Positions 6,408 to 27,268 of a stretch of 35,354 nt of DNA are shown in pieces. Source of the stretch: Sulfolobales archaeon (GTDB lineage: Archaea > Thermoproteota > Thermoprotei_A > Sulfolobales > NBVN01). The DNA lies in assembly GCA_038841535.1 (NCBI GenBank), contig JAWBTQ010000014.1:1-35354 (forward strand), given 5' to 3'. The notes under the pieces are model-generated. The model saw only the letters and a list, made by a program, of their open reading frames with translations. It was not told the DNA's origin and searched no databases. Position 1 is the stretch's first letter, and each line of letters opens with the position of its first letter. The position numbers and the translations under genes are program-made.

Positions 6408-7442
6408 CTATATCCATTTACCCGGAATGTACTTACCCCTAATTGGTATTGAATGCCCACACTTTGGACACTTATAATTGTCACCATCTCGATCTAAGTT
6501 AAAGTGGCTCACCCTATATCCGGCTCTCTTAATAAGGACTTTACCACACCTCGGGCACTTAGTTGCTTCATAGTCAGAGACTCCCACGTTCCCCACATAG
6601 ACGTACTCAATACCTGCCTTGGCTGCTGCACTTCTGATCTTCAGTAACTTCTCTATAGGGGTAGGGGGCTCAAGCCATCTATGAGCCGGGTAATACCTGT
6701 TAACATGTAGGGGGATGGAGGCTCCTAAGTATCTTATGTGGTTATCTATTATCCACTCGTAGCATTCATCAAAATCGTTAGTATTCGTTACAACGAGGTA
6801 AACCATCTCAACGTGAGCACCAAGGTCTACTGCTAGCTTAGCGTTTCGATATATCTTAGAGTGGTCGACTCCGGCGAGGCCTTTCTTCATGGATGGACAT
6901 CCCTTAATATCCGCTGAGAACCCATCAACTCCAGCGTCTATTAGAGACCTGACTACCGTTTCTGTAAAGTACATATTAGTTACAACCATAGAATACAGTC
7001 CGCGTTTTATAGCTATCTCCGATACGTCGATCACGTAGTCTAGGTTTACTGTGGGTTCATTAAAGCTTGCCGATAAGCCTTCATCACCCCTATGAAGAGC
7101 TGTATCAACAAGCCTCTCAGGACCGACGAATGGGTCACTAGCTCTCGGGTGGGCGAAGCTTAGGTGGTAGTTCTGACACCATGGACAGTAAAAGTTGCAG
7201 CCCCATGTAGAGTACGTTAGTGAAGTACTGTTAGGCCAGTAATGGAAAAGTGGTTTTATCTCTATTGGTCTACTCTCAAGAGCGCTTAATCTACCGTAGC
7301 CTAAGTGAACGAGCTTACCGCCTTCGTTAAAGTAGTTGCCGCAACCTCCCCTCCGCCCTGGGATGATCAAGCATAACTTCTCACAGGTAAGACACCTTAC
7401 TAATCCGCTACCAACAGACTCGTAGAACCTAGCTTCCTTCAC
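6408..7442 (-). CDS. amrS: AmmeMemoRadiSam-type radical SAM enzyme (PflA-like)
   Basis: N-terminal CxxCxxxC...GxC, PIEIKPLFHYWP, CNFYCPWCQN, FNEPT, YVYVGNV and C-terminal CPRCG/CPKCG. Confidence 0.8.
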   Translation of the reverse strand: MKEARFYESVGSGLVRCLTCEKLCLIIPGRRGGCGNYFNEGGKLVHLGYGRLSALESRPIEIKPLFHYWPNSTSLTYSTWGCNFYCPWCQNYHLSFAHPRASDPFVGPERLVDTALHRGDEGLSASFNEPTVNLDYVIDVSEIAIKRGLYSMVVTNMYFTETVVRSLIDAGVDGFSADIKGCPSMKKGLAGVDHSKIYRNAKLAVDLGAHVEMVYLVVTNTNDFDECYEWIIDNHIRYLGASIPLHVNRYYPAHRWLEPPTPIEKLLKIRSAAAKAGIEYVYVGNVGVSDYEATKCPRCGKVLIKRAGYRVSHFNLDRDGDNYKCPKCGHSIPIRGKYIPGKWI

Positions 7443-13690: not shown

Positions 13691-14875
13691 TTAACAGCTG
13701 GTTCTTTTGTGTAGCTTAGCTATAAAGTATCCTGGAGTATCGTGAATGTGGGGATGAAAGCGGGCTAAGTAGTCTTTTTGAAAACCATAAACACCTTTAG
13801 AGGCTCTCTTTATATTTACTTCGCTAACGTCAAGACATCTGCTTTCTTCTAGTACTTGCTCTATTACTTCCTCGTTTTCCTCCACAGTTACAGTGCACGT
13901 AGAGTATACTATAGTTCCACCTGGCTTTACTAGCCTATAAGCAGCTCTCATGAACTGTAGCTGGTACTTCTTTAAAGCTAAGACCTCCTCTAAGGTCTTG
14001 TGGTCTTCTATCTTGGGTCTCACTCCTAGAGCAGAGCATGGTGGGTCCACTACCACCTTGTCAGGTCTTAGCCATGGAAAATCCTCGTAAACGTACCTTG
14101 AGTCACTGACCCACACCTCGACGTAGGGGAGGTGACCTAGCCTAGAAAGCTCCTCCTTCATTCTATCTACTTTGCCCCTAGACCTATCGAAAGCAACTAC
14201 TGTAACTCTTCCACCAGAAAGTTCGACAATATGACTTGTTTTCCCTCCAGGTGAAGCGCATAAATCGACAACAAGCTCCCCGGGTTTTAAGTCTAGTTGT
14301 CGGGATACGTACATGGCCGGAAGGCTTTGAGGGTAGATTAGACCCTCACTAAATTCCGGTAACTCCCTAATTCCTACAGTCCTATAAAGCGATTTGGTAG
14401 TTCTAACAACCAAACCTCGTTTTTTCTTAATAGCCTCGTGGCAGTCTCTCGTGACTACGCCTTCCCCAACCTGGATTCCCGACTTCGTGACAATAGCTAC
14501 TTCATCACCTCTCCTCACGTTATAGTAACACTTCAATATGCCGGGAGCGTAAAGGTCGGCCCCTAATGCTACGGCCTCAGCAGCCTCCTTCGATGCTACG
14601 ACCACCTTGTCTCTAGGGTTAACCTTAAAGGGTCCATAGACCTTGAAATATATCGCCTCAGGAAGTTCTTCATCAGGATACGCCTCTATACCCCTATCCT
14701 TCAGTCTACTAAGCAACTCTCTCGGTTCTATCTTTAGGGTATTCACGCGAACGTAAAGTCTTCGACCAGGAGTTTTGACTCCCTCTAAAAACAAGCTTAC
14801 ATTTTCCCCGTACACCCTTCGCAGAGATTCAAGTAACCGAACATCGTAATCGAGTTGTCCCATGCTGTACCTCAT
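13691..14875 (-). CDS. RsmB/NOP2/Sun family RNA m5C methyltransferase with PUA domain (NSUN6-like)
   Basis: RVNTLK, PUA GADLYAPGI, DLCASPGGKT, DPPCS (motif IV), YSTCT (motif VI), GYFIAKL. Confidence 0.9.
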   Translation of the reverse strand: MRYSMGQLDYDVRLLESLRRVYGENVSLFLEGVKTPGRRLYVRVNTLKIEPRELLSRLKDRGIEAYPDEELPEAIYFKVYGPFKVNPRDKVVVASKEAAEAVALGADLYAPGILKCYYNVRRGDEVAIVTKSGIQVGEGVVTRDCHEAIKKKRGLVVRTTKSLYRTVGIRELPEFSEGLIYPQSLPAMYVSRQLDLKPGELVVDLCASPGGKTSHIVELSGGRVTVVAFDRSRGKVDRMKEELSRLGHLPYVEVWVSDSRYVYEDFPWLRPDKVVVDPPCSALGVRPKIEDHKTLEEVLALKKYQLQFMRAAYRLVKPGGTIVYSTCTVTVEENEEVIEQVLEESRCLDVSEVNIKRASKGVYGFQKDYLARFHPHIHDTPGYFIAKLHKRTSC

Positions 14876-15011
14876 GCATAAAAACGAAGTAAGTAATATG
14901 TTAATACATAGTTACGAAGCATTACTACGCAAGCGGGGAACCGCATTAGTAAGAGCACCTAAAATCACTGTCCTCGCTAGGTGATGTACAGCTTCTTTTG
15001 AGTAAAGTGTT

Positions 15012-15117
15012 CCTGAGCTTTGGGGTACAGCTCTGGTGTAGGTTCATATCAAGTGGTGTCACCGCTCCATATCCGTCCCCCGCATCGGCACCGGTTCCAC
15101 ATCACCCTTAGGGGCTC
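15012..15117 (-). mobile_element. Degenerate right-end / omega-RNA-like remnant (copy B), homologous to the element at 16761-17036
   Basis: 15025-15115 aligns to 16773-16864 at 59/92 positions with one gap. Shared blocks: GCCCCyAAG, GATG, ATGCGGGGG, ATATGAACCwACA, AGAGC. Ends in ...CAGG on the minus strand. Confidence 0.7.
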
Positions 15118-15213
15118 TAAAGGAAGATAAGGACTAAGTAATACTTCGAGACTATAGGTTGTTATCGCTCCCAAGCTTTTTTAGTCTGTTAGGAACATGA
15201 GTTTGGGAGTGGT

Positions 15214-15537
15214 ATGAGTGAAGTTCGAAGAGTATTTAGAACTCAGGACAACAAGTACGACGCACTCCTATCCATAGTCTTAGGGGAGAAGAGGTTTTAC
15301 ATGGTTGTATCTGGTTTAGCTAGACCACCAAAGGTAGTAAGGATCTTGGAGGCTGGTGCTACAGTCAAGCTAGAACTGCTAGACCAGTTCGATCACGGAT
15401 TTCTTACTTGTGTACTAGAGCGTGGGCACTTTGAGGAAGAGTTTGCTAGCGTTAAGTGCACTCCGGGTAACGTTTGGATAATAAGTGAGGACACTATTTT
15501 AAGACATAGGCAGTGTCCTGAGTCCTCGTCTGGTTAG
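15214..15537 (+). CDS. Hypothetical protein
   Basis: 107-aa ORF with GGGAGTGG RBS, 10 bp upstream of the GTPase gene; no motif recognised. Confidence 0.65.
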   Translation: MSEVRRVFRTQDNKYDALLSIVLGEKRFYMVVSGLARPPKVVRILEAGATVKLELLDQFDHGFLTCVLERGHFEEEFASVKCTPGNVWIISEDTILRHRQCPESSSG

Positions 15538-15547
15538 GTCGGATTAG

Positions 15548-16342
15548 ATGAGGTTTGCTAGCTGGAGGCTAGTTAGAGAACTCTTAGAGCTATCTGATGT
15601 GGTTCTCGAACTTACGGACTCTCGAGACCCGCTCAATACTAGGAGTGTGAAGCTAGAGAAGGCGGTTTCTAGAGCGGACAAACCTTTAATAATAGTCATT
15701 AACAAGGCCGATCTCGTACCTCGCCCTATATGTGAGGAATGGAAGATCTTCTTTAAGGTTAAGCTGGGATACGAAGCTGTCTATATATCAGCACGGAATA
15801 GGCTGGGGACCATGGTCTTAAGGCAAGCAATCAAGAATGCTGCCAGGGAGTCGGCTAGAGAGAAAGAGAAGATAGTAGTGTCTGTTTTTGGTCTACCTAA
15901 AGTTGGCAAGTCGACACTAGTAAACGCTCTAAAAGGAAGGCACTCAACGCCGACTTCTCCATACCCTGGGCATCCCGGCTACACCTTCAAGTCTAGGCTG
16001 TTTTATATAGGCGGAGGCATATATATCATCGATACTCCAGGGATCGTGCCGCCTGAGGGAGGGGACGTAGAGGCGGTCATAAGATCGAGACCTGTAGACG
16101 AGTTCCCTAACCCAGAGAAAGTAGCCGTAAACTTAATCCAAAAAGTCTTGAAGTACAACAAAAAAGCCTTCCTTGACGCATATGGAATAAAATCTGAAGA
16201 TCCTAGCGAGATAGTAGCTGAAGTAGCTAAGCTAAGAGGGTGGGTAAAGAAAGGAGAGCCAGATACCTACGAAGCCTCTAAAGTAGTCATTAGAGACTAT
16301 TTAGACGGTAAGATCGTGTACTACTACAGCCCAACAGCTTAG
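15548..16342 (+). CDS. Circularly permuted YlqF/RbgA-YawG family GTPase (ribosome biogenesis)
   Basis: Motif order DSRDP, G4 NKAD, G5 ISA, G1 GLPKVGKST, G3 DTPG. Confidence 0.9.
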   Translation: MRFASWRLVRELLELSDVVLELTDSRDPLNTRSVKLEKAVSRADKPLIIVINKADLVPRPICEEWKIFFKVKLGYEAVYISARNRLGTMVLRQAIKNAARESAREKEKIVVSVFGLPKVGKSTLVNALKGRHSTPTSPYPGHPGYTFKSRLFYIGGGIYIIDTPGIVPPEGGDVEAVIRSRPVDEFPNPEKVAVNLIQKVLKYNKKAFLDAYGIKSEDPSEIVAEVAKLRGWVKKGEPDTYEASKVVIRDYLDGKIVYYYSPTA

Positions 16343-16821
16343 TATTAAGAGCTCTAGTGCTTTCTTCGTCATTTACGTCTATCTGCGCTAACTATTGCTT
16401 GCTTTAGCCTTAGCTAGACAAGAGCCTGCAATACTTGAAATTCCTTACGCCACCTTGAGCACCTTAAAGTATAGAGAGCTTGAAACTCGTGCAGTGGAGA
16501 TGGTAGGTGATGAGGTCAATTAGTATAGAAACCTATCTCCGGATTCGCATCAATGTTTGTCAGCATTTTATTAGGGATTCTACAGGGGGCTTCGTTAAGT
16601 CGGTAAACCAGTTAGTTTATGTGGTGAGGCTTAGAGCATTGATCCCACAGCTAACTCCAGTAAGTGCAGATTTCTGAGCCTATATGTTCTCTACATAAGA
16701 TATTATAGTGTGAGTAACTCATCTCCCAGTTAGCGTCAAAATATCATAGCTTCAGAAACTCGTTGTTAGGAAGTTCGGCTCTCTTGTTGGTTCATATGGG
16801 TAGACCTCATTGCCTCATCTC

Positions 16822-16864
16822 TGTTCCCCCGCATTCCGCTCGGGGCCTCATCGGGCTTGGGGGC
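16822..16864 (-). ncRNA. H/ACA-like hairpin with apical K-loop inside the putative omega-RNA
   Basis: Minus strand reads gCCCCC-aag-CCc-GAUGA-ggcc-CCGA-gcGG-aaugc-GGGGG-aACA. A second GAUGA-ggcaa-UGA K-loop-like motif follows immediately. Confidence 0.5.
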
Positions 16865-17000
16865 GTTCAGGGCGACCCCCGGCACTCCACATCTTGAGTA
16901 ACTCGGGGAGAGCCGATCTACAGAGCTGAGCTCTCGACCCCTCATCGAACTACTTCCACATACCACTACACATAGAGTACTTACAAGCGTCCCCATCCAC

Positions 17001-17030
17001 ATAAACAAATATGAACAAATATGAAACCCG
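17001..17030. repeat. Three imperfect 10-bp tandem units at the element left end
   Basis: ATAAACAAAT / ATGAACAAAT / ATGAAACCCG. Confidence 0.75.
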
Positions 17031-17065
17031 AAACAGCTACTCAAGGCTAGCGATAAAGTGATGAG

Positions 17066-26980: not shown

Positions 26981-27268
26981 ATGGGTAGGACGAGAGTCGT
27001 TGGTGTAGCTGGTAGGTTTGGCGCTAGATATGGCGCATCCCTTAGGAAGAAGTGGCGGGAGGTCGTAGAGCGTAGGTACTCTGAGTATGTTTGTCCACTA
27101 TGTGGCACTAAGACCCAGTTCAGGAGGCTATCCGTTGGTTTATGGAAATGCCCTAAGTGCGGAAGGACTTTTGCTGGAGGTGCATACCAGCCTTATACGG
27201 AGATAGGTAAAGTGATTATTGTGTCTGGAGTCGGAGGTTTTAGCTCGAGGGAAAGGTCTAGCTCTTGA
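26981..27268 (+). CDS. rpl37ae: 50S ribosomal protein L37Ae (eL43)
   Basis: GRFGARYGASLRK, CPLC...CPKC zinc ribbon, FAGGAY. Confidence 0.95.
   Translation: MGRTRVVGVAGRFGARYGASLRKKWREVVERRYSEYVCPLCGTKTQFRRLSVGLWKCPKCGRTFAGGAYQPYTEIGKVIIVSGVGGFSSRERSSS

Follow-up and report, generated by a model that had tools for sequence, protein, structure and literature searches.

An RNA scaffold of ~116 nt suffices for the TnpB protein of ISDra2. In SisTnpB7, activity was strongly reduced when the CDS-derived part of the reRNA was trimmed below 113 nt, according to the available part of PMC11043419. Derivatives of IS605-type elements that resemble PATEs or MITEs have been described in G. stearothermophilus (PMC10055086) and in Haloquadratum walsbyi (PMC3119063), as far as the available portions of these two papers go. 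According to Meers et al. in the former, PATEs frequently encode omega RNAs, for which TnpB would have to be provided in trans; dispersed, tnpB-less omega RNAs on PATEs have already been proposed in print there.

The window, i.e., the whole 35,354-nt stretch of DNA analysed here, corresponds to contig C14 of a 1.56-Mb assembly that is 84% complete. A sequence-only reading had described two same-strand copies of one RNA scaffold in it, here called copy A and copy B, and had likened them to a dispersed set of orphan guide RNAs, with decay of a related IS as an equally possible alternative. For copy A, it is that alternative that fits best: this copy is very probably an ordinary transposon relic, left by an IS or PATE insertion whose 5′ part was deleted and which is now decaying neutrally.

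Copy A occupies a 338-nt spacer that separates two divergent genes. On the same strand as copy A (minus) and downstream of it lies the gene of an RsmB/F-family RNA m5C methyltransferase with a PUA domain (13691..14875; PF01189, E 5e-44; PF01472, E 5e-13), in agreement with the earlier description of copy A as directed at an m5C methyltransferase gene. The right end of copy A is 146 nt from the ATG of this gene, whose nearest matches were in MAGs labelled Ignisphaera, Desulfurococcales or Sulfolobales. On the plus strand, an ORF of 107 aa (15214-15537) is followed by a GTPase gene, and the block so formed (15214..16342, annotated with Pfam) has copies A and B on either side.

The gene order of the window is methyltransferase (−), copy A, 107-aa ORF (+), GTPase (+), copy B and radical-SAM (−). 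According to tblastn, the two closest relatives, G002 and G007, carry the radical-SAM, 107-aa ORF, GTPase and methyltransferase genes on one strand, and their ORF–GTPase block, which lies between copies A and B in our sequence (15122-16769), is therefore inverted relative to the window. Both breakpoints of the inversion fall in the window spacers that hold copies A and B. As these copies are direct and not inverted repeats, the inversion is not accounted for by simple recombination between them. The divergent pair of 107-aa ORF and methyltransferase gene was also observed in more distant relatives. Between the GTPase gene and copy B lie 427 nt (16343-16769) that hold nothing but a 56-aa ORF and match neither other parts of the genome nor the related loci. 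The window further encodes a radical-SAM protein with a C-terminal zinc ribbon (6408-7442, minus strand) and a 95-aa ORF (26981-27268, plus strand). The window's only two PF07282 matches, both weak, sub-threshold and distant (6447-6638 and 27029-27169), fall within these two proteins and are probably generic zinc ribbons.

A tnpB-derived repeat family and its parent element

Copy B (16770..17050, minus strand) is a complete non-autonomous element of the PATE/MITE kind (profile positions 3-295, E 4.5e-87). It is ~280 nt long and comprises a left end, ~90 nt of the 5′ part of tnpB and a ~140-nt 3′ module; both ends are thus present and the core is deleted. Copy B matched dozens of sites in the genome with 72-85% identity over ~275 nt. 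An iterated nhmmer profile built from it yielded 76 matches in the 1.56-Mb genome, 35 of them full length (~280 nt) and 59 reaching the right end. Six of the 76, copy A included, begin at profile position 170 or beyond. The idea that an excess of truncated right ends might represent scars of aborted homing was dropped, as the counts showed no such asymmetry (six right-end-only matches; 12 with a left end and no right end).

On contigs C19, C3, C1 and C9, the 3′ module adjoins tnpB ORFs (PF07282) or runs into them. The parent element on C19 is ~1.5 kb long and consists of the family left end, an open frame of 423 aa and the family right end. The frame scored above threshold for PF07282 (57.6 bits) and TIGR01766 (57.6 bits; cut-off 32) and below it for NF040570 (88.8 bits; cut-off 100), and the nearest solved relatives of the protein are TnpB and Cas12f proteins. 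Copy B derives from this 1.5-kb tnpB-only IS200/IS605-type element, and the ~280-nt copies, copy B among them, are PATE/MITE-like internal-deletion derivatives of it. Searches for the Y1 transposase (PF01797) found none in the 84%-complete assembly, although the family is represented there by >50 PATE copies, besides several tnpB genes; the enzyme that mobilizes the family may simply be unassembled.

A covariance model that spans the final 113 positions detected the module in 21 of the 52 genomes of the taxonomic family. Among the matches listed, at least 72 were in G002, at least 58 in the genome studied here (G000) and at least 52 in G007. Judged by eye, the PATE copies of the present genome show three or more distinct deletion junctions. 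All of them share a 3′-terminal stretch of ~140 nt that runs from ...TCAAGATGT on, and the tnpB-bearing copies have this stretch as well; the pattern suggests that the whole 3′ module, and not only its terminal hairpin, is needed for the spread or retention of PATEs. At the family left ends, conservation begins at GCCT and the preceding bases are unconserved. At the right ends, the majority base directly after CCCC in the alignment consensus is T. From these end alignments we would guess that the family TAM may lie in or at GCCT. We also observed a left-end-only fragment on contig C3 (~66413-66488) that abuts sequence resembling the 3′ end of a tRNA gene, with a T-arm-like GGTTCGAATCC motif.

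As a by-product, this work describes a tnpB/PATE family that is abundant in hot-spring archaea related to Ignisphaera, with its right end and structural module defined. The covariance model of the 3′ module could be used to annotate the family. A literature search on TnpB, MITE or IS605-type elements returned no Ignisphaera paper.

Copy A as a 5′-truncated right-end fragment

The reported same-strand similarity between copies A and B proved to be real. Their Smith–Waterman score was 29, as compared with 15.7 ± 2.2 (maximum 26) for 1000 dinucleotide shuffles, none of which reached 29. The two were also aligned by MAFFT on the minus strand. Using the family profile, nhmmer matched copy A at window 15123-15015 (minus strand) over profile positions 179-288, with an E value of 9.3e-19 and a score of 66.4 bits. 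In the covariance model, copy A scored 84 bits; typical copies scored 118-136.

We assign copy A to 15022..15121 (minus strand), with an uncertainty of ~3 nt at its 5′ edge. Within the tnpB element family it is a solo right-end fragment, and it has two parts. The first is a tnpB remnant (15059..15115), consisting of the last 18 codons and a TGA stop (15059-15061) in a frame that is still kept. The second is a non-coding right end of 37 nt (15022..15058), whose last bases, ...ACCCC, end at 15022. The translation of copy A ends in APKGDVEPVPMRGTDMER and that of the intact element's TnpB in TPKGDAYPRPMRGKEMRR; the frames are homologous and stop at the same place. In the intact C19 element, the stop is followed by the same 37 nt. 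Copy A is therefore homologous to the 3′ end region of tnpB, and its overlap with the coding end survives as a remnant.

Similarity across at least 50 copies stops at ...GAGCTG(A/T)ACCCC, which places the right end of copy A at 15022. The right end had previously been put at ...CAGG (15012); those bases are flank. Any guide would accordingly start at 15021, ten bases before the guide proposed at that time.

At its other side, copy A is incomplete. As had been stated, it has no left end: nhmmer with --max and E values up to 1000 found a single match, to the right end, in the whole 338-nt spacer. Upstream of ~15121, we detected no family similarity (Smith–Waterman score of 17 against the upstream parts of 50 copies; 17.1 for shuffles). 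Copy A begins at profile position 179 and thus has ~100 nt of the ~140-nt 3′ module; it lacks the upstream ~40 nt, including a hairpin that all complete copies keep. Because only one end is retained, copy A is a fragment and not a PATE.

We infer an insertion followed by a deletion. A tnpB-only IS200/IS605-type element, or a PATE derivative of one, would once have inserted between the methyltransferase gene and the 107-aa ORF. All but its last 100 nt would then have been lost, leaving the tnpB remnant and the 37-nt right end described above, and this remainder would now be decaying neutrally, neither selected nor used. The region represented by copy A corresponds, in intact members of the family, to the 3′ portion of the right-end/omega-RNA module, which explains the conserved stems.

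The missing 5′ part also bears on the proposal that copy A is a working orphan guide RNA, in which a minus-strand transcript would be loaded in trans by a TnpB of the family and would carry a fixed guide running from 15021 downward. We regard this as very unlikely. An intact-looking TnpB ORF of the same family is present on C19 and could act in trans, which favours the proposal and counts against a relic. The proposal is also favoured by the published precedent of PATE-borne omega RNAs for the concept as such (PMC10055086, in the part available). The transcript would nevertheless lack the upstream ~40 nt and hairpin of the complete copies. By analogy with SisTnpB7, the ~60 nt of CDS-derived sequence in copy A would fall short of the required length, a comparison between different TnpB lineages that may not transfer.

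Pairing in the 3′ module

Copy A retains two helices within 15077..15114 (minus strand): a basal helix of CCCCU (15114-15110) and GGGGG (15081-15077), and an upper helix of GG (15106-15105) and CC (15088-15087). The upper stem is CC/GG in copy B, such that both stems and the double change that had been noted between the copies are indeed present. These two helices, together with the intact terminal ...AGAGCTG.ACCCC motif, count against a mere relic and in favour of an orphan guide RNA.

We tested three helices in a MAFFT alignment of 52 copies: the upstream hairpin (columns 50-54/58-62), the basal helix (67-71/101-105) and the upper helix (75-76/94-95). Together, these were paired in 84.0% of cells, as compared with 76.7% in column shuffles (0 of 500 reached the observed value) and at most 63.7% with slid partners. 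The upstream hairpin, the helix that has no counterpart in copy A, was paired in 78.7% of cells (A2 columns 50-54/58-62). The swap between C–G and G–C in the upper stem occurred in 15 of the 52 copies, and GU, UG, AU and UA intermediates were also seen. Three other pairings were rejected: a hairpin register at columns 49-53/57-61, which was paired in 39.9% of cells, and the pairings of GGGG (42-47) with CCCCC (66-71) and of GGGG (101-104) with the terminal CCCC (176-179), neither of which was better than slid controls.

In a larger alignment of 80 matches from 79 loci, which was fitted to the model, 83.0% of cells were paired (shuffles, 68.3%), the covariation was 0.377 (shuffles, 0.170; slid partners, at most 0.234) and double changes occurred at eight of eight pairs; the copies are related, so the swap may largely be one event between two master lineages. 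Cells with a GU or UG wobble (42) were not in excess of those with a disruptive CA or AC (39), and individual copies therefore appear to decay neutrally.

In our reading, active elements have a structured 3′ module, as one would expect of a right end/omega RNA, and copies A and B inherited their compensatory difference from different master lineages. The pairing data fit an RNA structure and a structure in top-strand single-stranded DNA equally well, and show selection for no individual copy. The sequence-only reading is supported in part: copies A and B belong to one family with helices that covary, which also speaks for an orphan guide RNA, and the module lies at and over the 3′ end of tnpB, as do TnpB omega/reRNA scaffolds. 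This support does not extend to selection in individual copies. More generally, when two copies keep their stems through compensatory changes, this does not show that either is functional, because the copies may owe such differences to distinct master elements within one transposon family.

Folding of the individual sequences (minus strand) was no better than that of shuffles (z of 0.0 for copy A and 1.26 for copy B), and RNAalifold predicted just four pairs from the 52 copies, at −1.09 kcal/mol. The G and C runs permit many competing pairing registers. These results speak for a chance resemblance, or a low-complexity artefact of the G and C runs. That explanation retains next to no probability and is already refuted by the profile match and by the pairwise score that none of the shuffles reached; a tnpB frame and stop that are colinear with those of the intact element also argue against it. 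At the gathering threshold, Rfam had no matches over the whole window; when six right-end loci were scanned by E value, three matches emerged, all at chance level (E 0.7-7.2). A tRNA search found none.

Variation and candidate guide of copy A, and comparison with known systems

Copy A is the most diverged family member that still aligns clearly, and is an outlier of the family: its identity to the nearest copy is 73%, and the median for the other copies is 86%. At the syntenic site of seven relatives (G001, G002, G005, G007, L057, L058 and L059), there was no profile match at E values up to 10. These loci have the same or an inverted gene order and their intergenic regions are unalignable beyond the promoter-proximal bases, so the absence is a weak argument; as far as it goes, it counts against both conservation in syntenic position and use as an orphan guide.

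DNA contigs from three hot-spring studies span the site, and copy A is therefore present in those populations. The metagenome contigs contained three haplotypes of copy A: the window type, a variant differing at nine sites, and one with six of those nine. The nine sites lie within 15010-15097 (88 nt), eight of them inside the element. The rest of the spacer (~250 nt) had two further variable sites, and the flanking genes differed by ~0.5-0.7%, as counted from the listed differences. At six of the eight internal sites, the non-window allele is the majority base of the family, and three of these columns are 94-98% invariant. The window allele has therefore drifted from conserved positions, or the site has been gene-converted. 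None of the eight internal sites breaks a helix pair, and one turns a U-G into a U-A, which counts in favour of function and against a relic. The clustering of polymorphism in copy A could reflect relaxed constraint, ectopic gene conversion among at least 50 paralogues, or a mutation hot spot. Variation at positions that are nearly invariant in the family is a further argument against a working orphan guide.

We also considered an exapted cis element. Copy A would then have become part of the sequence that controls the methyltransferase gene, upstream of it or within its 5′ leader, or part of the divergent promoter region that serves the 107-aa ORF. Its position in a 338-nt divergent spacer, its orientation, shared with the methyltransferase gene, and its presence in contigs of all three metagenome studies would suit such a role. 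Relatives that have the same divergent gene pair, on the other hand, have shorter spacers without copy A, and conservation of the spacer with G002 is confined to 47 nt beside the 107-aa ORF. The 146 nt between the right end and the ATG, together with the high polymorphism of copy A, further argue against this role, and we consider it very unlikely.

In metatranscriptome run X13, contigs covered the family right end at copy B and none covered 14896-15183; contigs from multi-copy sequence could not be assigned, and such contigs reveal neither strand nor transcript ends, nor does a gap in them prove absence. The summed depth over the copy B module (16794-16978) was 223, versus 6.2 for neighbouring single-copy genes, a ratio of ~36 that lies within the range of DNA runs (~13-71) and is therefore not readable as expression.

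Only the 20 nt that adjoin the right end on its 3′ side (15002..15021, minus strand) could serve as a guide. The earlier proposal that the copies carry different guides holds insofar as each family copy has a different 3′ flank. The flank of copy A, with its start moved to 15021, was matched nowhere else in the genome when up to four mismatches were allowed and had no exact match in viral_contigs, both of which weigh against a working guide. Since copy A has neither a left end nor a TAM, a guide would have no donor joint to protect; correspondingly, no TAM-flanked match to the guide was found, with the TAM itself being a guess.

Overall, these data argue for the transposon relic. Counted in its favour were family identity, the in-frame tnpB end, the truncation, the divergence, the relatives without the repeat, the alleles in populations and a guide without a match. 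The proposed orphan guide is not supported for copy A, given a fragment that is 5′-truncated, most diverged, undetected in seven relatives, polymorphic and matchless in its guide. A more specific version, to which we give marginally less credence still, is that copy A is a minimal loadable omega RNA, transcribed toward the methyltransferase gene and bound by TnpB in trans, either as a fixed-guide orphan directed at some virus or plasmid not yet sampled, or in the role of a decoy or regulator. If copy A were loadable in trans, scattered truncated right ends would form a reservoir of stand-alone guides.

Copy A works like no known system in particular. The family module resembles the right end/omega RNA (reRNA) of IS200/IS605 elements such as those of ISDra2 and of SisTnpB1 and SisTnpB7 from Sulfolobus islandicus, in that it overlaps the last tnpB codons and has conserved stems. 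Its non-coding right end of 37 nt is close to the 38/39 nt given for S. islandicus in the available part of PMC11043419. As with TnpB omega RNAs, the module is followed by a variable flank, the would-be guide. Copy A departs from the IS200/IS605 omega RNA module in having no tnpB, no left end, ~100 of ~140 nt and no Rfam match. The resemblance to PATEs and MITEs applies to copy B and ~35 other copies, which are internal-deletion derivatives with both ends, whereas copy A has one end only. With TldR-type domesticated TnpBs, as described in the portion of PMC10705468 available, copy A shares a TnpB-family guide scaffold located away from a transposon; TldR guides, however, lie beside a tnpB homologue that has lost nuclease activity and match a promoter at another site, and copy A has neither feature. 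Copy A is also like solo or truncated IS remnants, which are similarly single, diverged, non-syntenic, partial and intergenic. Compared with these, its only peculiarity is that the retained part is a structured guide-RNA end.
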